Part shown: piece after piece, positions 1,179-17,533 of the stretch
How the letters are laid out: each line of letters begins with the position of its first letter
Numbering within the stretch: position 1 is the first letter of the stretch
Assembly (NCBI GenBank): GCA_038042445.1
Contig: JBBTED010000162.1
Coordinates: 1-17,533, forward strand
From: Candidatus Firestoneibacteriota bacterium
GTDB lineage: Bacteria > Oederibacteriota > D2-FULL-39-29 > JBBTED01
Length of the DNA: 17,533 bases
Direction of reading: 5' to 3'
The notes under the pieces: generated by a model
The model's input: only the letters and a program-made list of their open reading frames with translations
The model's database searches: none
What the model was told of the DNA's origin: nothing
Made by a program: the position numbers and the translations under genes

Positions 1179-1239
1179 TATGGAAATTGGACAATATTAG
1201 TAAGTATATATGAACCTGTATTTTTTCCGGTATTATAAT

Positions 1240-3345
1240 ATGAATAAAATACTAAAAACAGGATTAGTTATTTTTGGATTTGTTATTATTTTTATGCCAC
1301 TGGGTGCGCAGGGAGTTACACCTGCAGAAGTTTTAGTTTTGATAGATAGTAACTCAAGTATATCAAGGAGAGTAGGGGAATATTATGCATTAAAGCGTAG
1401 AATTCCAGGTGATAATATATTATATCTTTCTCCACCTTCAAATGTTGTATTTTCATATTCCCTATCAGAGTATAAAACTACAATAGAACAGCCTGTTATG
1501 AATTATATACAAAGTAGAAATCCATCAATAAAATACATCGTATTGTCCTGGGGTTTTGGATATAAAGTTGAGGTAGATAGTTTAAGAGATGGAAGTTCAG
1601 TAGAAGGTTTGTTAGGTTATTTACCTGTATCACAGGCAAAGGATGATATGAAAGCTACAATACCTACGTATTATAATAGTGGGAAACATATAGAAGAGTA
1701 TGCGACTTTACCTGTTTACATAGTAGGACGAATAGATGGATATACAGAAGAGATAGCGAAAAGAATAATAGACGATGCAATATCAGCAGAGCAAACAGGA
1801 GTAGTAGGTAAATCATATCTGCTACCTGGTGGTGATGTTATTGCAGATAGAGTCGTTGCACTTCACGAAAAGATGAAAGTACTATTAGGTGAAGCAAATG
1901 CAAAAATTGATAAATATGAACTAGAAACTGATCCTATGTATACTGAAATGGGTTTAAAATACAGGGGAATCAATGCGAATATTGGAGATTGGAATTCATT
2001 ATTTAAAGGAGGTGCTGCTGATTGTTTGTTTTACTATGGTGGCGATGCTAATGGACGAGCAGAATATTATGATGTATTTGATTGGGTTAAAGGGTCATTA
2101 TCAATTGATTTGAGATTAGGTGAGACAGCAGCTTCAAGATATAGCAGGATTACAGCATGGGCAGGACCATATATAGCAATAGAAGATTCATCAATAAGCC
2201 ATAAAGGGAATCACTGTGTTTTATTTGACAATAGTGATGGTTTATTAAAAGACTGGTATGTTTGGCAAGCTACATTTACCAGAAATGGTAATGGTGCTTC
2301 TTCTGATGGTTATGTATATTTATGTCAGACTACAGCAAAGCCAATAATACTTAGTGGATGGAATAAAACGGAAAATGTAGGAGGAACATCAGACAACAAT
2401 TTTGGAATAGAAGCAAAAGTAAAGATGTATGATACAGATAATCCAGGTTCTGGAGATGCAAGTGCAACAAAATCAGCAACAGTATATGTTCCATTTAATG
2501 TAGGCACACATAGTTGGGAAGAAACATCAAAGACATGGACACCAAGTTATCCTATAAAATATATAGATTTCAAGGTGATATTTAAAGGGCATACTGGTAA
2601 GGCGTGGATAGATGATTTATCAATAGTAGAAGCAGACAACACAACGCAAAATTTTTTGATGGCAGATAAGTATAATGTGTATAAACCAGGTGAGAATTAT
2701 ACAATACCTACAACACCACAAAGACATTTTCCGGATTTTGAAATATGGGATTCAAGTTATCCTGGTTGGGATGCAAGTGAGAATGCCTGGCTTTCGGGAA
2801 ATAATGTTTTCGCAAAGCAATTTGCATTAGAATCAATAGTCCAAGGAGCAACAGGAGCAATGGGAAAAACAGGACATGGGAACTATTGGAGAGGTTGGGA
2901 TGGAGCTGAAGATTATAAATTATTAGAATGGTTTGTGAAAGGATATTCATTTGGAGAAGCATTATGGATGACAGCGTATAAGGTGCCAAATACATTCGTA
3001 TATATAGGAGACCCATTATATAATCCATATGGAGCAAAAACAGGGATATATGGTTCTGTAGTAACAAATAGTTCTGTGCCAGTGAATGTGTATCCACAGC
3101 CATTTAAAGCAAGTGTAGGGCATACAGTGATACATTTTACAAAGTTGACTGGACATACAAGAATACAGATATTCAATGTAGCAGGAGAATTAGTATATGA
3201 TGAAGAGAAAGACACACCAACTGGAGATATGGAATGGAATGTAGTAAATAGCAGAGGTGAGAAAGTATCAAGCGGGATATATTTTTATGTAGCCCTTGAC
3301 GAGAATAAAAATCTAAAAAAAGGCAAATTAGCAATATTGAGATAG
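1240..3345 (+). CDS. Secreted TIGR03790-family protein with inserted carbohydrate-binding-like domain and C-terminal FlgD-Ig/T9SS-type-A-like tail
   Basis: Signal peptide from ATG 1240 (MNKILKTGLVIFGFVIIFMPLGA; the track start of 1210 is an alternative). Family-like motifs VLVLIDSNSSISRRVGEYYALKRRIP, KYIVL, YIVGRIDG, GYSFGEA, YIGDPLYNP. Tail VYPQPFK...IQIFNVAGELV...WNVVNSRGEKVSSGIYFY. Confidence 0.75.
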   Translation: MNKILKTGLVIFGFVIIFMPLGAQGVTPAEVLVLIDSNSSISRRVGEYYALKRRIPGDNILYLSPPSNVVFSYSLSEYKTTIEQPVMNYIQSRNPSIKYIVLSWGFGYKVEVDSLRDGSSVEGLLGYLPVSQAKDDMKATIPTYYNSGKHIEEYATLPVYIVGRIDGYTEEIAKRIIDDAISAEQTGVVGKSYLLPGGDVIADRVVALHEKMKVLLGEANAKIDKYELETDPMYTEMGLKYRGINANIGDWNSLFKGGAADCLFYYGGDANGRAEYYDVFDWVKGSLSIDLRLGETAASRYSRITAWAGPYIAIEDSSISHKGNHCVLFDNSDGLLKDWYVWQATFTRNGNGASSDGYVYLCQTTAKPIILSGWNKTENVGGTSDNNFGIEAKVKMYDTDNPGSGDASATKSATVYVPFNVGTHSWEETSKTWTPSYPIKYIDFKVIFKGHTGKAWIDDLSIVEADNTTQNFLMADKYNVYKPGENYTIPTTPQRHFPDFEIWDSSYPGWDASENAWLSGNNVFAKQFALESIVQGATGAMGKTGHGNYWRGWDGAEDYKLLEWFVKGYSFGEALWMTAYKVPNTFVYIGDPLYNPYGAKTGIYGSVVTNSSVPVNVYPQPFKASVGHTVIHFTKLTGHTRIQIFNVAGELVYDEEKDTPTGDMEWNVVNSRGEKVSSGIYFYVALDENKNLKKGKLAILR

Positions 3346-3358
3346 TTAATTATATATA

Positions 3359-4825
3359 TTAGTGCGAGAGAGCGTAGACTATTGAATTTATTCCGAGTTT
3401 TATGCTATCTTCAGGCTGATAGGTTTTTGTGTAAGGTCTTATTTGCTGGTCCCAGGCCATACCATATTTACTATATAAAACCATCGCATAGTCTTTTGCC
3501 ATTATACCTTCAAGGTATGGTTCTTTATTTCCTGCTCTTGACTGGCTTGCTTTTTGTGTGTATTCTACCTGGTCAATTGTATAAAACGAGTTAAATACAG
3601 GATGTGTTGGAGGTAATTCAGTTAAATCATTGTTTGGAAATATTTTTTTTAGTTCTCGTCTGAATGCTAAGTCAAATTCACTTGATCCACAACAACAATT
3701 AACTAACAGAAAGCCTCCGTTATATAGATACTTAGTCAATTTTGCAGCATCTGTTTGGGAAAATTGAAAGTCAGTATGGCCAGTCATATAAATAAAAGGA
3801 TGATTTGTTAAATCGTCCTTTGTAAGATGGACACTGATTCTATTATATTGGACATTACTCATTGTTGTGGCTCCGAGTTTCTTTAGAAATTGTGTTATTG
3901 CTCCTGGGTGTGGATCCCAATCGCCATTATGCACTACTTGTGCAAATGTAAATTCTCCGCCACTGCTTTTGTCATTGGTTTCATATACAGATTCTTTAGC
4001 CAGGTTTTTTCCTACTTTATGAAATGCCAGAACATAAGCTACAATATTTGCTCCAATTTTTAATGCATCATTGGTTTGTATTGTTTCTCTTGCTGTTGGA
4101 ACTGGGACATTATCCCAGCCACTGCTTAAATCTGCAGTAGATAAAATAACTGCTAATCTGCATCCTAAATTTACACCTTCAAGACGTGGTGTTTCACTTG
4201 ATTTAGTCTGTCCAGAGCGTATGTAATTTATCTTTTCAACTTTAAAAAATGAAGAGTATATCGGATGTGAAGATGAAATAATTTGAAAAGAACGTTGTGG
4301 AAGTATATTTTCAAATTCTTTTCTAAAAGATTCTGTAAAGACAGTATTGCCACAACAGGCATTACCTAGTATTGTGCCACCGTCAACTAAATATTTATAT
4401 ATTTTTTTCTTTTGTTCGTCTGTAAAAACTATTTTTTTGTGACCAGTGAAATATATTATTGGAATGGCATTTGCATCAAAAGAAAACTGGTCTAATATTA
4501 CTTCGTTATTTGTGTATGATATCCCAAGTTGTGGGCTTGCCCAATCAAGCATTTGTTTTACGTCAGAGATGTGACCTCTCCATCCTTCTCCTGTTACATA
4601 TTTTATTTTTGAAATTAATGCTAAAGGTTGTGGTGGTCTTTTTTGCTCTGTTCGTCTTAATGGAACTACAGGCAATGGAAGTGGAGGAAATCCTTCAGCA
4701 CCGGATATTCTCTGTGGTTTTGCTCCCGGAGGTGAACCATGAATTATATCCTGTTCTTGTTGTGCTAAAGATATTGAGCAAAGGAGCAATAATTGAATTA
4801 TTATAGTAATTACTAATTTTAACAT
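3359..4825 (-). CDS. Exported protein with two tandem DUF4159-like domains
   Basis: Signal peptide and Pro-rich N-terminus, then two homologous halves (PIIYFTGH...KYLVDGGTILGNACCG...F..E...ILP...HPIY vs PFIYMTGH...KYLYNGGFLLVNCCCG...F..E...IFP...HPVF), each ending ALKIGANIVAY / SIKLGINSIVY. Confidence 0.8.
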   Translation of the reverse strand: MLKLVITIIIQLLLLCSISLAQQEQDIIHGSPPGAKPQRISGAEGFPPLPLPVVPLRRTEQKRPPQPLALISKIKYVTGEGWRGHISDVKQMLDWASPQLGISYTNNEVILDQFSFDANAIPIIYFTGHKKIVFTDEQKKKIYKYLVDGGTILGNACCGNTVFTESFRKEFENILPQRSFQIISSSHPIYSSFFKVEKINYIRSGQTKSSETPRLEGVNLGCRLAVILSTADLSSGWDNVPVPTARETIQTNDALKIGANIVAYVLAFHKVGKNLAKESVYETNDKSSGGEFTFAQVVHNGDWDPHPGAITQFLKKLGATTMSNVQYNRISVHLTKDDLTNHPFIYMTGHTDFQFSQTDAAKLTKYLYNGGFLLVNCCCGSSEFDLAFRRELKKIFPNNDLTELPPTHPVFNSFYTIDQVEYTQKASQSRAGNKEPYLEGIMAKDYAMVLYSKYGMAWDQQIRPYTKTYQPEDSIKLGINSIVYALSH

Positions 4826-7291: not shown

Positions 7292-8098
7292 ATGATAAAA
7301 ATAATAGTTGCAGGTGCTGTAGGGAAAATGGGGTCTGCTATAATTAAAGTTATTTCTTCTGATTATAATTTTAAATTGGTTGGTGCAACTGAGCAATCTT
7401 CTAATAAATTATTAAATCAAGATGCCGGAGAAATTGCAGGTATCGGCAATATAGGTGTTAAAATAATTTCTGATTTGACGCAGATAATTTCTGAATGTGA
7501 TGTTGTAATAGATTTTACTTCGCCAAAATCCAGTTTGGAAAATATAAAAATTGCAAGCACTGCAAATAAGGCAATGGTTATAGGAACAACAGGGTTATCT
7601 TCTGAAGATAAAAAAGAAATAGAAAAATTTACGAAAAATATTCCTTGTGTTATGTCTCCTAATATGAGTATAGGTGTGAATATTTTATTTAAACTTGCAA
7701 AGGATGTAGCTGCTATTTTGGGAGAAGATTTTGATACAGAAATAATTGAGGCACATCATAGGTTTAAAAAAGATGCCCCAAGTGGAACTGCTGTGCATCT
7801 TGCTGAAATTATTGCACAGGCAAAAGGTGTTAATATTGAAGAATCCGGTGTGTATGGGAGAAAAGGTATAACAGGTGAAAGAGATAGCAAATCAATTGGT
7901 GTGTTGGCAGTGAGAGCTGGTGATATTGTTGGTGACCATACAGTTATGTTTGGAGGAATTGGTGAAAGGTTAGAACTAATTCACAGGGCACATAGCCGTG
8001 AGACTTTTGCAAGAGGAGCTTTAAGAGCTGCGAAATATGTTGTTAATGCAAAACCAGGTTTGTATGATATGCAGGATGTATTAAATATCAAAAGTTAA
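7292..8098 (+). CDS. dapB: 4-hydroxy-tetrahydrodipicolinate reductase
   Basis: GAVGKMG, DVVIDFT, VIGTTG, SPNMSIGVN, EIIEAHHRFKKDAPSGTA, RAGDIVGDH. Confidence 0.97.
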   Translation: MIKIIVAGAVGKMGSAIIKVISSDYNFKLVGATEQSSNKLLNQDAGEIAGIGNIGVKIISDLTQIISECDVVIDFTSPKSSLENIKIASTANKAMVIGTTGLSSEDKKEIEKFTKNIPCVMSPNMSIGVNILFKLAKDVAAILGEDFDTEIIEAHHRFKKDAPSGTAVHLAEIIAQAKGVNIEESGVYGRKGITGERDSKSIGVLAVRAGDIVGDHTVMFGGIGERLELIHRAHSRETFARGALRAAKYVVNAKPGLYDMQDVLNIKS

Positions 8099-8124
8099 AA
8101 TGCAAAGTGCAAAATGTAAAATTA
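8083..8124 (+). repeat. Six degenerate tandem heptamers spanning the dapB stop
   Basis: AAATATC-AAAAGTT-AAAATGC-AAAGTGC-AAAATGT-AAAATTA. Confidence 0.5.
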
Positions 8125-8137
8125 CAGAAAGGATTAT

Positions 8138-9316
8138 ATGAAACATAATTTTTCAAAAAGACTTGATTGTTTGCCACCTTATTTATTTATTGAAATTGAT
8201 AAGATGAAAAAAAAGGCTTTGGCAGAGGGTAAAAATCTTATTGATTTGGGAATTGGTGATCCTGATTTACCTACACCAAAACCAATTATTGAAGAATTAA
8301 AAAAAACGTGTGAGGATGCTAAATATCACAGGTATCCACTGGGAACAGGTCTTATACAATTTCGTGAGGCAGTGGCAAATTGGTATAAAAGACGGTTTGA
8401 TGTTGAGCTTGAACCGAAATCTGAAGTGGTGACACTTATTGGTTCAAAAGAAGGTATTGGTCATATTCCACTTGCATTTGTTAATCCGGGAGATGTTGTT
8501 CTTGTGCCAAATCCTGGGTATCCTGTATATAATGCAAGCACTGTATTTGCAGGCGGAAAACCTTTTATGATGCCTATTACAGAAAAAAATAACTGGGTTC
8601 CGGATTTGAATAGCATACCAAAAAATTTACTTAAAAAAACAAAATTGATGTTTTTAAATTATCCGAATAATCCTACATCTGCTGTTGCTACAAGAGAATT
8701 TTTTGAAGAAGTTGTGAGATTTGCAAAAAAACACAATATAATTGTTTGTCATGATGCTGCGTATTCTGAAATTTATTTTGGCAATGAAAAACCTTTGAGT
8801 TTTCTTCAGGTAAACGGTGCTAAGGATGTAGGTATAGAATTTCATTCTTTATCAAAAACTTTTAATATGACTGGCTGGCGTATAGGATTTGCAGTTGGAA
8901 ATAAAGAAATTGTTCGTGGTCTTGCAAAAGTGAAGGAAAATCTTGATTCCGGAGTTTTTGAAGCAATACAGATGGCGGGTATTAAAGCTTTAAATTTACC
9001 GGATGCTAATACTGAAAATATAAGAAAAGAATACGAGAAACGCAGGAATATTTTATTAACTGGTTTAAAAGAAATTGGTTTAGAAGTGGGTGAAACAAAA
9101 GCTACTTTCTATGTATGGATAAAAGTACCTCAAGTATATAAAAAAACAAAATCACCTTCTTCTGAATTTGTTGCCTTTTTATTGCAACAATGTGGTATTA
9201 TTAGTACGCCTGGTGTTGGGTTTGGAAAATATGGTGAGGGTTATATCAGAATGACACTTTGTGCTAGTAGTGCTAAATTAGAAGAAGCAATTTTCAGAAT
9301 GAAACAGAATTTGTGA
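8138..9316 (+). CDS. dapL: LL-diaminopimelate aminotransferase (class I PLP aminotransferase)
   Basis: LPPYLF, DLGIGDPDLPTP, LIGSKEGIGH, LNYPNNPT, HDAAYSE, EFHSLSKTFNMTGWRIG, TPGVGFGKYGEGYIR; directly follows dapB. Confidence 0.88.
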   Translation: MKHNFSKRLDCLPPYLFIEIDKMKKKALAEGKNLIDLGIGDPDLPTPKPIIEELKKTCEDAKYHRYPLGTGLIQFREAVANWYKRRFDVELEPKSEVVTLIGSKEGIGHIPLAFVNPGDVVLVPNPGYPVYNASTVFAGGKPFMMPITEKNNWVPDLNSIPKNLLKKTKLMFLNYPNNPTSAVATREFFEEVVRFAKKHNIIVCHDAAYSEIYFGNEKPLSFLQVNGAKDVGIEFHSLSKTFNMTGWRIGFAVGNKEIVRGLAKVKENLDSGVFEAIQMAGIKALNLPDANTENIRKEYEKRRNILLTGLKEIGLEVGETKATFYVWIKVPQVYKKTKSPSSEFVAFLLQQCGIISTPGVGFGKYGEGYIRMTLCASSAKLEEAIFRMKQNL

Positions 9317-9729
9317 AATTAGAGCATATAGCATATATAGGTTTGGGTTCTAATTTAGGAAATAGGGTAAGTAATATAAAAAAGGCGGTAAAACTGCTTA
9401 AAATAAAACAAGAAATTAGAGTAGAGAAAACTTCTTCGCTTTATGAAACTGAACCTGAGGGTTATAAAAATCAACCTAAATTTATAAATGCTGTAACAAG
9501 GATAAAAACAATTTTAAAACCACATAAATTACTTAGTAAATGTAAAGATATTGAAAAAAAATTAAAAAGAAAAAGAACAAAACGGTGGGGACCAAGAATA
9601 ATAGATTTAGATATTCTTATGTATGATAGCATAAAAGTGAAGTCAAAAAGACTTGTTCTTCCACATCCAAGAATGAATAAGCGAAAATTTGTTCTTGAGC
9701 CATTGAAGGAAGTGTTGAAAGATAAATGA
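9313..9729 (+). CDS. folK: 2-amino-4-hydroxy-6-hydroxymethyldihydropteridine diphosphokinase
   Basis: AYIGLGSNLG, SSLYETEP, FINAV, RWGPRIIDLDIL, LPHPRM.RKFVLEPL; GTG start overlaps the dapL stop (GTGA). Confidence 0.97.
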   Translation: MKLEHIAYIGLGSNLGNRVSNIKKAVKLLKIKQEIRVEKTSSLYETEPEGYKNQPKFINAVTRIKTILKPHKLLSKCKDIEKKLKRKRTKRWGPRIIDLDILMYDSIKVKSKRLVLPHPRMNKRKFVLEPLKEVLKDK

Positions 9730-10361
9730 AACATAAATTTATAATAGTAGAAGGTCCTATAGGTGTTGGAAAAACAACTTTAGTTGACTTATTGGGTAAA
9801 GAATTAAATGCACAGATAATGTATGAGGAAGGGAATGAAAACCCTTTTTTGGAAAAATTTTACACAGACAAAAAAGCGTATGCATTTCAGACGCAAATTT
9901 ATTTTTTGGTAAGCAGATATAAACAGCATCAGCAATTGATACAACCAGAGCTTTTTAAAAAGGTTACTATATGTGACTATATGTTTGCCAAAGATAAAAT
10001 TTTTGCATACCTGAATTTAGATGAAAAAGAACTTGTATTGTACGAAAAACTTTATGCAATGCTAAAATCATCAGCTCCTGTGCCTGATTTGGTGATATAT
10101 CTGCAGGCAGATGTCCATACGTTAATTCATAGAATACGACAAAGAGGTAAGCAATATGAGCAAAAAATGTCAATAGAATATCTTGAAGAATTAATCAAAG
10201 CATATAACCATTTCTTTTTCAATTATAACGAATCTCCATTGCTTGTTGTGAATACCAATAATGTAGATTTTGTGCATAAACCTGGAGATTTTCATAATCT
10301 ACTTGACCAGATAAAAAATATGTCAGTTATGACAAAATATTACACTCCTGTAGGCGTTTAA
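9726..10361 (+). CDS. Deoxynucleoside kinase (dCK/dGK family)
   Basis: IVEGPIGVGKTT P-loop, NPFLEKFY, AFQTQIYFL.SRY, PDLVIYLQA, RIRQRGKQYE. Confidence 0.92.
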   Translation: MKHKFIIVEGPIGVGKTTLVDLLGKELNAQIMYEEGNENPFLEKFYTDKKAYAFQTQIYFLVSRYKQHQQLIQPELFKKVTICDYMFAKDKIFAYLNLDEKELVLYEKLYAMLKSSAPVPDLVIYLQADVHTLIHRIRQRGKQYEQKMSIEYLEELIKAYNHFFFNYNESPLLVVNTNNVDFVHKPGDFHNLLDQIKNMSVMTKYYTPVGV

Positions 10362-10382
10362 ATATTAATCCGTAGACATAAA

Positions 10383-10435
10383 TTGTAGTTGCCGATTTAT
10401 CGGCGTTTTTTTTGCTGATAAATCAGCGACTACAA
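10383..10435. repeat. GTAG-type REP doublet (second subfamily)
   Basis: GTAGTTGCCGATTTATCGGCG (10385-10405) and inverted GCTGATAAATCAGCGACTAC (10414-10433); TTTA loops and a compensatory stem change. Confidence 0.85.
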
Positions 10436-10455
10436 ATAAAAAAATAATTGTATTT

Positions 10456-11343
10456 ATGAAAATTATAAAAAGTATAAAAGAAATGCAGAAATGGTCTGAC
10501 AAAATCCATAAAACAGGTAAAACTATTGGGTTTGTTCCGACTATGGGGTATTTTCATAAAGGGCATTTAAGTTTGATGGAAAATGCAAAAAAAAATTGTG
10601 ATTTTGTAATAATAAGCATTTTTGTAAATCCAACACAATTTGTGGCTGGTGAAGATTATGAAGCATATCCACGTGATATCAAGAAAGATACTGAATTAGC
10701 ACAAAAAGCCGGAGTAGATATAATATTTTTACCAAGTGTCCAAGGAATGTATCCTGATAAATATTCTACTTATGTGAATGTCCAAGGAAATTTAACTTCA
10801 GCACTTTGTGGAAAATTCAGACCAGGTCATTTTAAAGGAGTTACTACAATTGTGGCTAAACTTTTTAATATTGTAAAACCAGATAAAGCGTATTTTGGCC
10901 AAAAAGATGCTCAGCAGTGTGTAGTTATAAAACGTATGGTTAAAGATTTGAATTTTGATTTAGATGTGGTTGTGTTACCGACATATAGAGAAAAAAATGG
11001 TTTGGCTTTAAGTTCCAGAAATGTATATCTTAGTGAAGAAGAGAAAAACAAGGCATCTATTTTATATAAAGTTTTGAAATATGCTAAAGCTAAAATTAAA
11101 TCCGGCGAGCAAAATGCAAATAAAATTATATCGGAAATGAAAAGGAAAATAATAGCTGTTGAGAATAATGCCAAAATAGATTATATCTCAATAGTTGACC
11201 CTGAAACACTTGAGGATATTAAAATAATAAATAAAAATGTGCTTATAGCACTTGCTGTGAAAATCGGTAAAGCCCGTTTAATTGATAATATTACGGTAAA
11301 AATACCCCCTCTTTGGAAAAGAGGGGTAGGGGAGATTTCATAA
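10456..11343 (+). CDS. panC: Pantoate--beta-alanine ligase
   Basis: GFVPTMGYFHKGH, SIFVNPTQF, RPGHFKGV, YFGQKDAQQ, GLALSSRN, RLIDN. Confidence 0.97.
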   Translation: MKIIKSIKEMQKWSDKIHKTGKTIGFVPTMGYFHKGHLSLMENAKKNCDFVIISIFVNPTQFVAGEDYEAYPRDIKKDTELAQKAGVDIIFLPSVQGMYPDKYSTYVNVQGNLTSALCGKFRPGHFKGVTTIVAKLFNIVKPDKAYFGQKDAQQCVVIKRMVKDLNFDLDVVVLPTYREKNGLALSSRNVYLSEEEKNKASILYKVLKYAKAKIKSGEQNANKIISEMKRKIIAVENNAKIDYISIVDPETLEDIKIINKNVLIALAVKIGKARLIDNITVKIPPLWKRGVGEIS

Positions 11344-11402
11344 ACTATAAGTAAACCCATATTTTTTAAAATCCCCCTTAATCCCCCTTTTTCAAAGGGG
11401 GA
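11303..11402. repeat. CCCCC/GGGGG-tract repeat pair between convergent panC and araC; first unit lies inside panC
   Basis: TACCCCCTCTTTGGAAAAGAGGGGTAGGGGAGATTT (11303-11338) and inverted AAAATCCCCCTTAATCCCCCTTTTTCAAAGGGGGA (11368-11402). Confidence 0.85.
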
Positions 11403-11409
11403 AATATTT

Positions 11410-12294
11410 TTACTTGCTTGAGAATTGATTGATGTATTCTTGCGGGGTTTTTAAAAAGAATTTTTTGAATAAATGGTGGAAATGGCTGTTATCATAAAAT
11501 CCCCAGCGGGTAGCAATTGTTTCCATTTTATCTTTTCCTAATATAATATCACGTATAGCCATATGTAATTTGATTTGCATATGAAATTTAAAAAAACTTG
11601 TTCCCATCGTTTTTTTAAAAATCTCATTAAATCTTGGTTTGCTTAAATTAGATATATCAGCAGCATTATGAAGATGCATATCATTTTGTGAATATTTGTA
11701 AATAGTTTTGAGGGCTGGTTCTATTTTTTTAAAATTGTTATAGCTGTTTAATGGAGAATGTGTTTTTATACCTTTGCACTGATTTAAAAGTTCTATTAAT
11801 ATCCTTTTTAGATTCAGCCGTATAGAATTTTCCCAGTTATTTGGCCGTTTGGTATGTAAGTGCAAAATATCATCTGCCAATGATAACACATTAAGTTTTG
11901 TTGAGTGTGGATTAAATGATTTCGGTCTGTTTTTTGAAAATCGTGATATAAATGGAATAAGTAGTTTTATATCATCTGGCTCCTGCAAAATAAATTCAGG
12001 TAAAAATATAATAACTAATAATTTAGTGAATGGCTCTAAATTTTTTCCGCCATGTGGTTCCCAGATTCCTTCATAATAGAATTCTCCTTTTTTTATAATA
12101 TGCATACTTTTTTCATAAATCTGCAGAAATTTTCCTTCTAAAACTATTACAAGGCAACATATAGGATGTATATTAAATTCTGTTTTGGTAATGGTATTAT
12201 AATTATGAAGTAAAACATCAAATGGTTTTTTTGAAGTTAAATTACCCTCAAATAATTGAGGTTGTCTGGTAATATTTGTTACATTTTTTTGCAT
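11410..12294 (-). CDS. AraC-family transcriptional regulator with N-terminal cupin-like domain
   Basis: HP...LVIVLEG...PHG cupin pattern; C-terminal AADISNLSKPRFNEIFKKTMGTSF and IATRWGFYDNSHFHHLFKKFFLKTPQEY double HTH; divergent from the catabolic operon. Confidence 0.92.
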   Translation of the reverse strand: MQKNVTNITRQPQLFEGNLTSKKPFDVLLHNYNTITKTEFNIHPICCLVIVLEGKFLQIYEKSMHIIKKGEFYYEGIWEPHGGKNLEPFTKLLVIIFLPEFILQEPDDIKLLIPFISRFSKNRPKSFNPHSTKLNVLSLADDILHLHTKRPNNWENSIRLNLKRILIELLNQCKGIKTHSPLNSYNNFKKIEPALKTIYKYSQNDMHLHNAADISNLSKPRFNEIFKKTMGTSFFKFHMQIKLHMAIRDIILGKDKMETIATRWGFYDNSHFHHLFKKFFLKTPQEYINQFSSK

Positions 12295-12468
12295 AATTAA
12301 TTATATCATTGGGCAAAATAAAAATACAATAAAATCATCATTTTTTACACACGATACTATTTGCAATTTCATAAAATAACGACATATATTATAATAAAAG
12401 GAGAAATTTTTGTGGAAAAAGTTATTACTAATAGATGTTTAATTTGCTGTAATAGGTAAGTGGTTTTA

Positions 12469-12543
12469 TGTAGGGCAAGGCTTTAGCCTTGCTTAATATA
12501 AGCACGACCCACTAAAGTGGGTGCTCCGAAGGTTTGCCCTACA
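12469..12543. repeat. GTAG-type REP doublet with a nested GGAG-type hairpin
   Basis: GTAGGGCAAGGCTTTAGCCTTGC (12470-12492) ... GAAGGTTTGCCCTAC (12528-12542); between them ACCCAC-TAAA-GTGGGT-GCTCC (12507-12527). Confidence 0.8.
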
Positions 12544-12587
12544 GTATAAAACTTTTTACATTACCGTTTTAAAAAAGGGGGAATAAA

Positions 12588-13598
12588 ATGTTAGAAAATC
12601 CGACAGTTATTTTTAAAAAACCTTTAGATGTTGTTCTTGAGAATACATCTATGCCGTCTATAGGATATGGTGAAGTTTTAATTCAAACGAGCAGAACATT
12701 GATAAGTACTGGTACAGAATTAACTATTTTAAGTGGTGAATTTCCTAAAGAATCTGCTTGGGCAGAATATGGGAAATATCCATTTTTAGCCGGATATTCC
12801 AATATTGGAGTTGTTGTAGAAATTGGAGAAGGAGTAGATGCATCATGGAAAAATCAGCGAGTAGCAAGTTTTAGTGGACATTCTAAATATGTAAAAAGTC
12901 CGGTAGAATCTGCAAAAAAAGTCTCAGATGGAATTTCAGATGAGCAAGCAGCATTTTTTACAATAGCTGAAGTTGTTATGAATGGTGTGCGTCGTGGACA
13001 AATTCAGTTTGGAGAATCTGTTGTAATTTACGGATTAGGGCTTTTAGGACAATTGACTGCACAGTTTTCAGGTATTTGCGGTGCCAAGCCGGTAATTGGT
13101 ATTGATGTAGCACAAACCAGACTTGATTTACTTCCAAAAAAACCTTCTATTATAGGAGTGAATTCACAAAATTGTGACATTATAGAAAAAGTAAAAGAAT
13201 TAACTAAAGGCAGAATGGCAGATGTAATATTTGAATTAACAGGAAATCAGAATTTAATTCCAAAAGAATTTGCATTGTTAAAAAAGAAGTTAGGAAGATT
13301 TATTGTGCTAAGCAGTCCGCGTGGAGCAGTGTTATTTGATTTTCATGATTTGTGCAATAGACCAAGTTTTACAATTATTGGTATTCATCATAATTCACAT
13401 CCGGAATATGAAACATCAGGTAACCCTTGGACACAAAGTAGGCATACAGAATTATTTTTTGATTATGTAAAAGATGGTGAAATAAAATTAGATAATTTGA
13501 TCAGTCATCGTGCGAAATTTTCTCAGGCTCCTGAGTTATACAAAATGTTACTTAAAGACAGAGCACAAGCAATGGGAGTAATTTTAGAATGGGAATAA
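12588..13598 (+). CDS. MDR-superfamily dehydrogenase, ISxGTE subgroup (BchC-like), probably acting on a sugar/polyol
   Basis: LISTGTEL, YPFLAGYSNIGVV, Rossmann VVIYGLGLLGQL, DVIFELTG, LISHR; no four-Cys structural Zn lobe. Confidence 0.85.
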   Translation: MLENPTVIFKKPLDVVLENTSMPSIGYGEVLIQTSRTLISTGTELTILSGEFPKESAWAEYGKYPFLAGYSNIGVVVEIGEGVDASWKNQRVASFSGHSKYVKSPVESAKKVSDGISDEQAAFFTIAEVVMNGVRRGQIQFGESVVIYGLGLLGQLTAQFSGICGAKPVIGIDVAQTRLDLLPKKPSIIGVNSQNCDIIEKVKELTKGRMADVIFELTGNQNLIPKEFALLKKKLGRFIVLSSPRGAVLFDFHDLCNRPSFTIIGIHHNSHPEYETSGNPWTQSRHTELFFDYVKDGEIKLDNLISHRAKFSQAPELYKMLLKDRAQAMGVILEWE

Positions 13599-13606
13599 TG
13601 GAGGGT

Positions 13607-13650
13607 TTTCCCCCTTTGAAAAAGGGGGATGAAGGGGGATTTAAGGGGGT
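13607..13650 (+). repeat. CCCCC/GGGGG-tract repeat inside the operon, overlapping the SD of the next gene
   Basis: TTTCCCCCTTTGAAAAAGGGGGATGAAGGGGGATTTAAGGGGGT ends 6 nt before ATG 13657. Confidence 0.8.
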
Positions 13651-13656
13651 ATAACT

Positions 13657-14757
13657 ATGACTAAAAACGGTAAAGTAAAAGTTGGAATTATCGGGTCCCA
13701 ATTTCAGGCTGATATTCATATAGCGTCTATACAAATGGGTGAGATAGCTGAAGTTGTTGCTGTAGCATCACCAACTCCGGGGAATGCTAATAAGTTAGCA
13801 AAGAAATATAATATCCCAAAAATTTTCCTGGATTACAGAGAGATGCTTAAAGAAAAAGACATTGAGATGGTGACTATTGCTGCTCCGAATAGGTTTCATT
13901 CGCAAATGACTATTGATATTGCTAATGCAGGTAAACACGTTGTGTGTGAAAAACCATTATGTATGACGCTCGAGGAAGCTGATGAAATGATAAATATTTG
14001 CAAACGAAAAGGTGTGTTGTTGATGTATGCAGAGGAGTTGTTTTTTACACCTAAATATGTTCGTGCAAAACAGTTAGCTGATGAAGGTGCATTTGGCAAA
14101 GTGTATCAGGTTAGGCAAAGTGAAAAACATTCAGGTCCGCACGCTAAATGGTTCTGGGATGTCCAAAAATCTGGTGGAGGAGTATTGATGGATATGGGGT
14201 GCCATGGTATAGCATTTGCTTATTGGTTTTATAACCGCGTTCCAATAAAAAATGTTCTATGTCAGATGGGAACTTATGTTCATAAAGCAATTACCAAAGG
14301 AGAAGATAATAGTATTTGTATTTTAGAATTTAAAGACGGTAGCACAGCGTTAATTGAGAATAGTTGGGCGAGACTTGGTGGAATGGATGATCGTATTGAA
14401 GTGTTTGGTTCAAAAGGATGCACTTATGCTAATTTGCATATGGGTAATGCATTGAATACTTATAGTGAATGTGGTTACGGATATGTTGTTGAAAAAGCAG
14501 CTACTACAAAAGGTTGGACATTTACTACTTATGAAGAATTATGGAACTATGGATTTCCTCAGGAGATGGCTCATTTTGCTCGTTGTGTTCGTGGTAAGGA
14601 TGTTTCTCAGTCTACTGGTGAAGATGGCCGTGTTGTTCAGGAAGTGTTGTATGCTGCATATAAATCAGCAGGAAAAGGTGCAAAAGTAGAATTACCATTT
14701 CGTCCCAAAGGTATTAAAAGACCAATTGATTTATGGTTAAAGTCAACAGGGAGGTAA
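13657..14757 (+). CDS. Gfo/Idh/MocA-family NAD(P)-dependent oxidoreductase
   Basis: KVGIIGS, DYREML, PNRFH, AGKHVVCEKPL, SGGGVLMDMGCH. Confidence 0.93.
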   Translation: MTKNGKVKVGIIGSQFQADIHIASIQMGEIAEVVAVASPTPGNANKLAKKYNIPKIFLDYREMLKEKDIEMVTIAAPNRFHSQMTIDIANAGKHVVCEKPLCMTLEEADEMINICKRKGVLLMYAEELFFTPKYVRAKQLADEGAFGKVYQVRQSEKHSGPHAKWFWDVQKSGGGVLMDMGCHGIAFAYWFYNRVPIKNVLCQMGTYVHKAITKGEDNSICILEFKDGSTALIENSWARLGGMDDRIEVFGSKGCTYANLHMGNALNTYSECGYGYVVEKAATTKGWTFTTYEELWNYGFPQEMAHFARCVRGKDVSQSTGEDGRVVQEVLYAAYKSAGKGAKVELPFRPKGIKRPIDLWLKSTGR

Positions 14758-14761
14758 TATT

Positions 14762-16189
14762 ATGATAAGCAAAATTATTACGGATGAACAGATAAATAAA
14801 ATTCACAAGTCTTCAGTGGAAATACTTGAACGTATAGGTGTTATTGTGCCTCATGAGGAAATGATAAATAAATTTATAGAAGCTGGGGCTATTGTAGATA
14901 GAAAAACACAATGTGTTAAGATTTCGGAAAAACTAATTATGAAATCGCTTGAACAATGTGGAAAACAATGGACAATTTATGGCCGTGATTTATCACAAAA
15001 GGCAAGTTTTGGTGTTGGCAAGCGAAACTATAATAGTAGTGCAGGTGAGGCATCATGGTTGGATGATATAGGCAAAAATCGTAGATATGCAACATTAAAT
15101 GATGTCCAAACTGCAACGCGTTTTTGTGATGCTTTGGATAATATAAATATTGTTGGTGCAATGGCAGACCCGCATGAATTTCCAATAGAATGGCGTAGCA
15201 TTGAAGTGGCAGCAACAATGATAAAAAATACAAATAAGCCAATAACTTTTTGGTTTCATAATCGTGTTGCTACAAAATATATAATAGAAATGTTAATTGC
15301 ATTGCGTGGTGATGTCCAAAAAGCAACTGAATATCCTTTGTGTTATCCATTTTTTGAACCTATTAGTCCTTTGCGATTTCCTTTTAATGGAATAGATTTA
15401 TTATTTGAGACAGCAAGAATTAATTTGCCGGTGCCAATTGGTCCTATGGCACAAATGGGTTTATCAGCTCCAGGGACAATTGCAGGAACACTTGTGCAGG
15501 AAAATGCAGAAATTCTTGCAGGTATTTGTATTACACAATTAATACGTCAGGGAATGCCTGTTTGTTATGGCGGGGTTTGTCATGCATTTGATATGTCTGC
15601 TACACAGATAATTTTTGCAGGTCCTGAACAGGCAATTCTTGGGGTTGCAATGACGCAAATGGGAAAATATTATGGGTTTCCTGTATATATTAATGTAGGA
15701 CTAACTGATTCAAAACGACTTGATGCACAAGCTGGTTTAGAAATTGCTTCTACTTTGGTTTTAGTCGCAGCAGCAGGAGCAGATATATTCGGGCATATGG
15801 GAATTTGTGGAGCGGATCAGACATCTTCATTAGATATTCTTGTTTTACAAAATGAAATAATTTCTTATATAGAAAGCGTGAATAGAGAAATTGATTTTAG
15901 TGACGAAGCAATTGGAATTAACGAAATTGCAGAGGTTAGATGCGGTGGTTCATTTATTGATAGAATGCATACAGCTTTGCATTTTAGAAAAGAGTTGTGG
16001 TTTCCGAAACTTCTAGATAGAAATTATTATCAAGTTTGGCTTGATAATGGAGCAAAAAGTATGGAAGAACGTTGTCGTCAACGCAAAGAAGAAATATTAG
16101 TTACACATTCTGTAGAACCAATTGCAAAAGATTTAGAAAAAAAATTAGATGATATTGTAGCTCACGCAAGACAGGAATTATACGAGTAA
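14762..16189 (+). CDS. Trimethylamine methyltransferase (MttB)-superfamily protein, non-pyrrolysine
   Basis: IHKSSVEILERIGV, PISPLRF, APGTIAGTLVQENAEILAGICITQLIRQGMPVCYG, GLTDSKRLDAQAGLE, GGSFIDRMHT...FRKELWFPKLLDR; no in-frame TAG. Confidence 0.92.
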   Translation: MISKIITDEQINKIHKSSVEILERIGVIVPHEEMINKFIEAGAIVDRKTQCVKISEKLIMKSLEQCGKQWTIYGRDLSQKASFGVGKRNYNSSAGEASWLDDIGKNRRYATLNDVQTATRFCDALDNINIVGAMADPHEFPIEWRSIEVAATMIKNTNKPITFWFHNRVATKYIIEMLIALRGDVQKATEYPLCYPFFEPISPLRFPFNGIDLLFETARINLPVPIGPMAQMGLSAPGTIAGTLVQENAEILAGICITQLIRQGMPVCYGGVCHAFDMSATQIIFAGPEQAILGVAMTQMGKYYGFPVYINVGLTDSKRLDAQAGLEIASTLVLVAAAGADIFGHMGICGADQTSSLDILVLQNEIISYIESVNREIDFSDEAIGINEIAEVRCGGSFIDRMHTALHFRKELWFPKLLDRNYYQVWLDNGAKSMEERCRQRKEEILVTHSVEPIAKDLEKKLDDIVAHARQELYE

Positions 16190-16197
16190 TAAATCTG

Positions 16198-16227
16198 TTT
16201 ACAAACGTCATTATTCTTTCGTATAAT
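16198..16227 (+). promoter_or_regulatory. Possible internal promoter upstream of the SBP gene
   Basis: TTTACA (16198-16203)-N18-TATAAT (16222-16227). Confidence 0.4.
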
Positions 16228-16359
16228 CAGTGGGGTTTTAGAGAAATGGGGACAGAAAAGTATTTGAAGTGTGTTAAAGAGCTTGGGTTTGCTGGTGTGG
16301 AAATACATGTGGATTCAGATCCAAAAGAGGCGATAAATTCATTCTATGCGGAGGGATAA
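16207..16359 (+). pseudogene. N-terminal remnant of a sugar phosphate isomerase/epimerase (xylose-isomerase-like TIM barrel)
   Basis: Reads VIILSYNQWGFREMGTEKYLKCVKELGFAGVEIHVDSDPKEAINSFYAEG*; KELGFAGVEI matches the family's N-terminal LGFDGVEL motif; stops at 16357-16359 after about 50 codons. Confidence 0.65.
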
Positions 16360-16370
16360 AGGGGGATTTT
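16351..16370 (+). repeat. Half copy (G-rich arm only) of the CCCCC/GGGGG repeat
   Basis: GAGGGATAAAGGGGGATTTT compared with GGGGGATGAAGGGGGATTT in the 13607 copy and GGGGATTAAAGGGGGTTTT in the 6106 copy. Confidence 0.55.
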
Positions 16371-16373
16371 AAA

Positions 16374-17533
16374 GTGAAGAAGAAAAATATATTTGCTATA
16401 GGACTACTTGTTGTATTTGCAATATGTATTTTAAGTATATCCTGTACAAAAGATAGCAAAAGTTCTAAACGTGTGGTTTTAAAATATGCAGTTAGAGGAA
16501 GTGCCAGTGATTATAATACTGTTAAAGAGTTGGTAAAAGAATTTGAAAGACTTCATCCTGATATAGGATTAAGATTAATACCTATTACAGATTGGGCAAG
16601 ATATTTAGTAAAAGTTCAGACAATGGTTCTTTCAGGTGATTGTCCGGATATTATTGATATAGCAACAATGGAATATTATGTTTTAGCTGACAAAGATACA
16701 TTGTTAGATTTAACTGGTTTTATTAAAAATGATGCAGAATTTCAGGATAGAATGAAGAATGATTTTCATCCTAATCTTATGGAGGTTATTTTATTTAAAG
16801 GTAAATATGCTGCAATACCTGGGTGGTGTAATCCTATAATTATGTATTATAATAAAGATATATTTGACAAAGAAAAATTAAAATATCCGGATAGCACATG
16901 GGATTGGAATACATTTGTGAATAATTGCAAAAAATTGACTAAGGATTTTAATAATGACGGTAGAATTGATCAATATGGAACAATAATATTTGGTGGAGGT
17001 GGGGCACACTTAATTTTAAAAATGAATGGAATAGAATTTATAAGTTCTGATGGTAAAAAATGCAATTTAGATAAGCCTCTTGCTATAGATGCTGTGAGAG
17101 GGTGGTATGATTTGATAAACAAATATCATGTAGCACCATCATTAGGGCAGGTAACAGAAATGCAGCCAGTTCCATTATTTATGACAGGTAAAATCGCAAT
17201 GTTGTGGTCAAATATTTATGCAGCTAGTGAGCTAAAAGCTGTAAAAACTTTTAAATGGGATATAGCAGTACTTCCAAAAGCAAAGCAAAGAGCAACAGTA
17301 AATGGGTTTATATTATGGGCCATTCCTACACAGACAAAACATCCTGCAGAAGCTTGGGAATTTATAAAGTTTTTAAATGGGCCTATAGGTCAGACAATAA
17401 GATTTAAATACAATGGAGATTTGTCTGTATTGAAATCAGTTGTGAAAAAAGAAGTAATTGATACAAATATAATATCAAAAAATGGAGATGTTATTACTGA
17501 AAGTTTGAAGTATTCGTATGTGCCGTATGCAGG
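16374..17533 (+). CDS. Carbohydrate ABC transporter solute-binding lipoprotein (CUT1 type), 3' end outside window
   Basis: Not in the track. GTG 16374 after GGGGG SD; MKKKNIFAIGLLVVFAICILSIS-C lipoprotein signal; EFERLHPDI, SGDCPDI, MYYNKDIFD, YPDSTWDW, LTKDFNNDGRIDQYG, FMTGKIAM, WDIAVLP, KHPAEAWEFIKFL. Confidence 0.92.
   Translation, partial: MKKKNIFAIGLLVVFAICILSISCTKDSKSSKRVVLKYAVRGSASDYNTVKELVKEFERLHPDIGLRLIPITDWARYLVKVQTMVLSGDCPDIIDIATMEYYVLADKDTLLDLTGFIKNDAEFQDRMKNDFHPNLMEVILFKGKYAAIPGWCNPIIMYYNKDIFDKEKLKYPDSTWDWNTFVNNCKKLTKDFNNDGRIDQYGTIIFGGGGAHLILKMNGIEFISSDGKKCNLDKPLAIDAVRGWYDLINKYHVAPSLGQVTEMQPVPLFMTGKIAMLWSNIYAASELKAVKTFKWDIAVLPKAKQRATVNGFILWAIPTQTKHPAEAWEFIKFLNGPIGQTIRFKYNGDLSVLKSVVKKEVIDTNIISKNGDVITESLKYSYVPYA

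Follow-up and report, generated by a model that had tools for sequence, protein, structure and literature searches.

What does an MttB-superfamily methyltransferase do in a gene cluster that otherwise looks devoted to sugars? The question is raised by a 17,533-nucleotide stretch of DNA (the window), which is the entire contig JBBTED010000162.1 (C162 in our numbering) of a Candidatus Firestoneibacteriota bacterium with a genome of 2.8 Mb, 32% GC and 90% completeness. All the parts that the original prediction named were found where it had placed them and, apart from the isomerase remnant, agree with Pfam: an AraC regulator divergent from co-oriented genes for an MDR dehydrogenase, a Gfo/Idh/MocA oxidoreductase (Gfo), an MttB-family protein, an isomerase remnant and a sugar-type solute-binding protein (SBP), with the noted four nucleotides between the Gfo stop and the MttB start. 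These had been read as one pathway that imports, oxidises and demethylates a methylated carbohydrate-like compound. The five-gene pathway is not conserved among relatives, while a smaller core is. From the partners found in two sister clades of MttB relatives, A and B, we conclude that the conserved unit consists of an AraC regulator, an NAD-dependent sugar-oxidising enzyme and MttB, in which Gfo and an enzyme of glycoside hydrolase family 4 (GH4) are interchangeable. The loss of most of the betaine-binding residues known from a related enzyme, together with the predicted sugar-oxidising neighbours, suggests that the window MttB probably demethylates a methylated sugar or cyclitol in a corrinoid-dependent reaction. 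The features of the locus are as follows.

11410..12294, minus strand: AraC-family regulator, cupin plus HTH_18 (PF12833), of the type divergent from clade-A MttB loci
12295..12587, no strand: divergent intergenic region of 293 nt, presumed control region, with a genome-wide repeat near 12461-12493 (blastn)
12588..13598, plus strand: MDR-family dehydrogenase (PF00107), judged a local addition
13657..14757, plus strand: Gfo/Idh/MocA oxidoreductase (PF01408), predicted sugar C3-hydroxyl dehydrogenase, in an orthologous group at 66-80% identity
14762..16189, plus strand: MttB-superfamily protein (PF06253) of clade A, pyrrolysine-free
16180..16227, plus strand: segment copied from contig C93, overlapping the last MttB codons and stop, with a sigma-70-like site TTTACA-18-TATAAT at 16198-16227
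16230..16347, plus strand: xylose-isomerase-like TIM-barrel remnant, with a 37-codon open reading frame (ORF) at 16246-16359
16374..17533, plus strand: family-1 sugar-type SBP (PF01547), cut by the contig end

The MttB protein and its active-site residues

Scanning genome contigs yielded 157 MttB relatives, the best 80 of which are taken as the clade-A loci. Their proteins have 52-72% identity to the window MttB and come from many phyla, with records from Planctomycetota, Lentisphaerae, Armatimonadota, Verrucomicrobia, Kiritimatiellaeota, Poribacteria, Gemmatimonadales, Promethearchaeota and others; the remaining MttB paralogues of the same genomes reach at most 32%. The window protein matches PF06253 with 282 bits (cut-off 25) over residues 4-472, which places it in the PF06253/COG5598 superfamily, and it is the sole match to this family in the host genome. 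Its predicted model (predicted local distance difference test, pLDDT, 94.7) keeps the full MttB fold, with a template modelling score of 0.95 to the MtgB structure 9YCE at 26% sequence identity. The trimethylamine methyltransferase MttB of Methanosarcina barkeri (7XCL, 28% identity) is alike in fold and differs at the pyrrolysine position (X), to which Leu314 of the window protein aligns; the window protein also scores 366 bits on TIGR02369, under the cut-off of 525. The reading frame is open, and leucine stands at this position in 77 of the 78 sequences in the clade-A alignment (the window plus 77 loci, with two partial sequences and one containing a stop dropped). The window MttB is pyrrolysine-free.

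It shares this property, the fold and likely the hand-off of the methyl group to a RACo-activated corrinoid protein, with MtgB of Desulfitobacterium hafniense (2QNE, 9YCE). In MtgB, glycine betaine is bound by Y97, F356, R312 and H348, according to the accessible part of Picking et al. (PMC13080624), which also describes R312 as conserved in all characterised quaternary-amine members, namely MtpB, MtcB, MtyB and MthB. In two alignments Y97, R312, H348 and F356 correspond to A94, Y309, H345 and D352 of the window MttB, so that one of the four betaine-binding residues is retained, the histidine. The same replacements run through the clade: Tyr309 takes the place of R312 in 78/78 clade-A sequences and in 25/25 full-length Gfo-linked sequences (one of these 25, L240, being itself a clade-A member), Y97 is replaced by Ala, Gly or Ser and F356 by Asp (D352) in 78/78, which leaves both cation-pi positions non-aromatic, and H345 is kept in 78/78. 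The likewise pyrrolysine-free MtpB, MtcB, MtyB and MthB of Eubacterium limosum thus differ from clade A at R312, where clade A has its invariant tyrosine. The window-type operon differs from that of MtgB also in having GH4 or Gfo partners instead of a corrinoid or MT2 gene. With three of the four residues lost, the window MttB is, as far as its sequence can tell, not an MtgB-type enzyme, in line with the non-betaine substrate originally proposed.

The residues that clade A conserves are of a different kind. Invariant in all 78 sequences are Y309, H345, D352, E199, H274, N311, Q231 and N91, and the set W164, E199, H274, Y309, N311, H345 and D352 is common to all 25 Gfo-linked proteins. Most of Y309, H345, D352, E199, H274 and N311 sit in or just past the predicted barrel strands of the model, and by our own mapping E199 occupies the position of an Asn predicted to contact betaine in the part of PMC6855144 available. 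The Glu/His/His/Asp set (E199/H274/H345/D352) would suit a Lewis-acid metal; zinc activates methanol in MtaB, according to the same partial source.

Predicted sugar-oxidising partners in clades A and B

Which genes accompany MttB in its relatives, and do they point to a sugar? Glycosidases of GH4 work by an NAD-dependent C3-oxidation mechanism. In 29 of the 80 loci, from seven named lineages, a GH4 gene is found no more than 3.3 kb from the clade-A MttB, and in 19 loci the distance is at most 200 bp. Where at least 3 kb of flank is present on both sides, the count is 18/50. For the control, 60 MttB paralogues were hand-picked from 150 listed matches in 50 host genomes; five belong to clade A, and GH4 stands beside 4 of the remaining 55 (flanks of 3.5 kb, some shortened by contig ends), which gives a Fisher p of 8e-5 for the difference in linkage, related loci not being independent. 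All four control hits fall in one distant MttB clade (L149, L150, L152 and L153; 25-27% identity to the window). Of the clade-A-linked GH4 proteins, 17 form a single well-supported group. The main GH4 partner carries a CHGV motif, has the alpha-galacturonidase LplD (3FEF) as its best PDB match and scores 316 on an alpha-galactosidase model with a cut-off of 486, a combination that does not fix the sugar. The GH4 genes of the host itself, on contigs C27 and C147, fall outside the main partner clade and were rejected as partners.

An AraC gene on the opposite strand is found in 12/80 clade-A loci. On a profile built from 11 of these regulators the window AraC reaches 158 bits, whereas none of the 13 other hits in the genome exceeds 53; by this measure the window AraC is of the cognate regulator type of clade-A loci. 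Gfo-type proteins in clade-A loci are only distant ones (21-31%, 15/80). When 109 and 95 ORFs from the neighbourhood, most of them drawn from lists of 218 and 205, were scanned with Pfam, many glycosidases were recognised, along with UroD-like proteins, sugar transporters, PIG-L deacetylases, GNAT proteins, a rhamnose isomerase, a PfkB kinase with an aldolase, and many unrelated genes. In the host, a UroD-family gene occurs at C147:8173-13514 together with genes for a GH4, an aminoglycoside-3-N-acetyltransferase-like protein and a PHP/CBM9 protein; GH4 is again combined with UroD-like and acetyltransferase-like genes at L055, and UroD-family matches number 17 across the host genome.

The second partner is the one present in the window. 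The best 80 of 576 metagenomic relatives of the window Gfo (66-80% identity) were examined, 68 of them with at least 1 kb downstream. A co-oriented MttB with 37-45% identity to that of the window follows the Gfo orthologue in 26 of the 68; because some of the loci nearly duplicate one another, the 26 cases are not all independent. In a quick tree of 60 rows, made of uncharacterised homologues only, the Gfo-linked MttBs (clade B) are sister to clade A, with Shimodaira-Hasegawa-like approximate likelihood ratio support (SH-aLRT) of 99 for the joint group and 100 for A. The two partner types also cross over, as L240 joins Gfo with a clade-A MttB and L237 joins Gfo with a clade-A-type GH4. A close Gfo orthologue (at least 54% identity) exists elsewhere in 10 of 50 clade-A host genomes, with up to 40 candidates scored per genome. 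The link to carbohydrate drawn in the original prediction is therefore supported by GH4 or Gfo partners across phyla and a cognate AraC.

One clade-B group has the order binding protein, Gfo, MttB, (creatininase-like), ROK kinase, UroD-like. Another group sits among BT2158-like glycoside 3-dehydrogenases, Kelch mutarotase-like proteins and DUF1080, and BT2158 and DUF1080 work in a 3-keto-glycoside route (PMC8121099, in its accessible part). Among the 116 of 191 Gfo-locus neighbour ORFs scanned with Pfam, SIS, ROK and LacI proteins are often found where MttB is absent. Since SIS, ROK, deacetylase and acetyltransferase genes are among the neighbours, an amino sugar is still a candidate substrate. 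At L179, L185 and L186, loci lacking MttB, the Gfo orthologue has upstream of it a gene resembling glucuronoyl esterases (by Pfam at L179 and L186), a faint hint of 4-O-methylglucuronate.

The best structural matches of the window Gfo are the aminoglycoside 3''-dehydrogenases GenD2 (6NOR) and KanD2 (6JW6), at 27-28% identity, followed by TM0414; no NCBIfam cut-off is reached. GenD2 oxidises the 3''-hydroxyl of its sugar (PMC4340712, partial text), and the glycosidases GH109 and GH188, of related fold, perform an NAD-dependent C3 oxidation that has been compared with that of GH4 (PMC10755693, likewise partial). The partners of clades A and B come from these families, the GenD2/KanD2 dehydrogenases and the NAD-dependent C3-oxidising glycoside enzymes (GH4, GH109, GH188, BT2158). 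Here, unlike in GenD2/KanD2-type and other C3-oxidising systems, the context is catabolic and anaerobic, and the pairing with a corrinoid methyltransferase was not found in the literature searched.

Methyl transfer in the host and the proposed function

Where would the methyl group go? The host has a stand-alone gene for a corrinoid protein of 209 aa (C15:11595-12224), which lies directly 3' of rpoC and far from any methyltransferase. It also has two RACo activases, corrinoid iron-sulfur protein subunits, acetyl-CoA synthase, methylenetetrahydrofolate reductase (MTHFR) and two pterin-binding methyltetrahydrofolate:corrinoid methyltransferases that score above cut-off. RACo occurs in 49/50 clade-A hosts against 1/14 controls, and in 9/10 relatives that have an MttB match. 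B12-binding domain matches in the host number 29 genome-wide; they lie mostly in frames of 460-550 aa, which are probably B12 radical-SAM proteins. Four Asgard loci (L014, L018, L065 and L071) combine a clade-A MttB with a corrinoid protein and a homocysteine methyltransferase, and in two bacteria a gene with a MetH activation domain stands beside the clade-A MttB. In some of the four Asgard loci an MFS transporter of the sugar type, or another MttB, is present as well. The Asgard arrangement resembles MtgBCD of Ruegeria pomeroyi, where corrinoid demethylation is tied to methionine synthesis (PMC12478193, as far as the available part goes); its substrate is glycine betaine, and the window host, unlike that system, has no match to the homocysteine S-methyltransferase family in its 90% complete genome.

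We propose that the sugar would be oxidised at C3, and so freed or activated, by the partner enzyme, which is GH4 in most relatives and the GenD2/KanD2-like Gfo in the window. MttB would then demethylate the product and pass the methyl group to a B12 protein whose gene lies outside the locus. From the corrinoid protein the methyl group would go to tetrahydrofolate and acetyl-CoA synthesis, or to methionine in the Asgard relatives with an adjoining homocysteine methyltransferase, while the demethylated sugar would enter ordinary catabolism. The methyl group could be an O-methyl, an assignment we make only tentatively, or the N-methyl of an amino sugar, which is the more doubtful of the two. It is possible, if rather doubtful, that in clades A and B we have the first O-demethylases that use B12 to act on aliphatic methyl ethers of sugars. 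In such an enzyme, C3 oxidation by GH4 or Gfo would turn a neighbouring methoxy group into an activated enol ether, which the Glu/His/His/Asp metal site would polarise for Co(I) to take the methyl. No report of a sugar-linked MttB demethylation was found in the literature searched, with subscription papers and supplements mostly outside it.

Several observations weigh against this proposal. All six MttB members with a known substrate, MthB being the sixth, act on methylamines (PMC12155760, partial text), and the conserved aromatics W164 and Y309 (with F276 in clade A) together with the acids E199 and D352 could hold a cation that lacks a carboxylate. The C3 specificity of the Gfo is a prediction, because identity to GenD2 and KanD2 is as low as stated above. 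No corrinoid gene is present in the window, and among clade-A loci one was seen only in the four Asgard loci. No formyltetrahydrofolate synthetase turned up in the host genome, which is 90% complete, and RACo is present also in 8/30 relatives without an MttB match. GH4 was not seen in 51/80 clade-A loci and is absent from 32 of the 50 that are fully flanked, and the clade-A hosts are rich in sugar genes. Finally, the window MttB departs from the clade consensus at 17 well-conserved positions, which together with the decaying tail described below means that the window locus may be degenerating.

The first of these points would fit a route in which GH4 or Gfo acts on a glycoside and releases from it a methylated amine, choline-like or some other cation without a carboxylate, followed by the usual N-demethylation by MttB. 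A precedent for such preparation of the substrate is MthB, which requires an upstream kinase (PMC12155760, same part). We consider this unlikely, given the non-aromatic cation-pi positions in 78/78 sequences and neighbours that are sugar kinases, SIS proteins, mutarotase-like proteins and 3-keto-glycoside enzymes; no betaine or choline transporter family was recognised in the scanned ORFs, a subset of the neighbours. The varied neighbours in most clade-A loci, and the many loci without GH4, could also mean that the sugar context is incidental and that MttB acts on an unrelated methylamine in genomes full of carbohydrate genes. This is very improbable in view of the GH4 count of just 4/55 in the paralogue control, the 19 near-abutting GH4-MttB pairs, the independent Gfo linkage in the sister clade and the cognate AraC.

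The new invariant Glu/His/His/Asp set and the usual lack of a nearby corrinoid gene might further indicate that the clade has abandoned methyl transfer for other sugar chemistry, for instance a metal-dependent hydrolysis or another alkyl removal. However, RACo in nearly all clade-A hosts, the retained MttB fold and the methyl-transfer genes beside MttB in the four Asgard loci and two bacteria make this highly improbable, and demethylation of a methylated sugar or cyclitol remains our preferred reading.

Metagenome studies routinely take MttB-superfamily genes for quaternary-amine demethylases (e.g. PMC11291895, as far as its accessible part goes); most of these genes have no known substrate. 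A widespread clade with a different residue signature and sugar-oxidising partners would change this reading, and would point to the way in which methylated sugars lose their methyl groups in the absence of oxygen. If clades A and B are indeed O-demethylases of the kind outlined above, anaerobes from groundwater bacteria to Asgard archaea would have in common a way to use, without oxygen, the methylated sugars found in glycans of plants, algae and microbes. With the residue signature, the two interchangeable partners and the cognate regulator, the standard cob(I)alamin assay can be applied directly to test for the substrate.

The local additions and the rest of the window

Do the remaining genes of the locus belong to the same pathway? 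The window MDR has 26% identity to the D-guloside 3-dehydrogenase YcjQ of E. coli. A match to this MDR stands beside the MttB relatives in 0/80 clade-A loci and is present in 0/80 Gfo loci, and closer MDR homologues in relatives (49-60%) have no MttB within a flank of about 1.5 kb (judged by eye from ORF starts). By this distribution the MDR is a local addition. SBP matches, like those of the MDR, number 0/80 in clade-A loci (E<=1e-4), and the synteny of MDR, Gfo, isomerase and SBP that had been expected among relatives did not appear.

The isomerase remnant and SBP, which had been taken as native parts of the pathway, are joined on from the locus on contig C93. Three separate parts of C93 are matched by window 16180-16227 (94%; 45/48 nt to C93:2174-2221), 16230-16347 (98%; 116/118 nt to C93:3707-3824) and 16375-17533 (91%). 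The second part is the start of an intact PF01261 gene of 272 aa; the remnant alone has no Pfam match and is identified through its 98% identity to this gene. The SBP differs from its C93 paralogue by 37 synonymous and 51 other codon changes, and that paralogue has an in-frame stop at codon 90; the best PDB match of the SBP is an arabino-oligosaccharide binding protein. C162 and C93 end in at least 55 identical bases. The promoter-like site TTTACA-18-TATAAT matches the consensus at 11/12 positions, the best of 31 sites in 6.2 kb, a match that is not proof of function; the scan as a whole shows no excess (31 sites against 29.7 expected from shuffles). The C93 locus (C93:1-5716, L289) also encodes a GH42-trimerisation-domain protein, a UroD-like protein and a TIGR03790 protein, besides the intact isomerase and the SBP paralogue.

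Misassembly of the tail is unlikely, because Logan contigs from runs X1-X3 (one study) span both joints: they cross the deletion joint at 16347/16375 without differences and show both copies, and they extend 30 bases beyond the joint at 16227/16230, where the bar is 31. In run X6, which belongs to a different study, a single contig leads from the end of MttB into isomerase sequence that apparently continues; this contig is either a strain variant or a chimera formed over the 118 nt in common. The gene run MDR-Gfo-MttB itself is intact. The remnant and SBP are probably a secondary graft and not original parts of the pathway, and, being grafted from C93, they say little about the MttB substrate.

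That MDR, Gfo, MttB, isomerase and SBP nevertheless form one native route, perhaps for an O-methyl cyclitol, is a reading that overlaps with ours and that we regard as quite improbable. The same gene families occur together in E. coli ycjNQRS, five clade-B loci have the order SBP-Gfo-MttB, and the X6 contig, unless it is a chimera, would continue from MttB into the isomerase. Against this stand the absence of MDR and SBP matches in clade-A loci, the derivation of the tail from C93 with its own promoter-like site, and identities to YcjQ, YcjS and YcjN of 23-26% (26% for both MDR and Gfo). No intact orthologous trio corresponding to the ycjQRS guloside/glucoside pathway is present; the epimerase is only a remnant in the window, and its intact C93 paralogue barely matches YcjR. 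The weak resemblance to the Thermotoga-type inositol pathway (TM0414 and Iol models) likewise stays far under the curated cut-offs, at 172 (cut-off 355) for IolG and 46 (450) for IolM on the window side, and at 61 (300) for IolO and 101 (245) for IolN in a relative.

No match to the window pattern was found in the viral contigs searched, and no RNA run is among the listed runs that hold window DNA. Wherever labelled, the source of the runs that best cover the window DNA is a groundwater metagenome; runs holding small shares of it were left out. Upstream, window 1210-3345 encodes a TIGR03790-family protein of 711 aa with a C-terminal secretion-sorting-like domain, to which the TIGR03790 gene on C93 is related, and 3359-4825 on the minus strand a protein with two DUF4159 domains. 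The run at 7292-11343 presumably consists of housekeeping genes, resembling dapB, dapL, folK, a deoxynucleoside kinase and panC. Short palindromic intergenic repeats are abundant (window 11301-11411, 13594-13645 and 12461-12493), with 79 copies in the genome by a simple pattern and many more in the sequencing runs.

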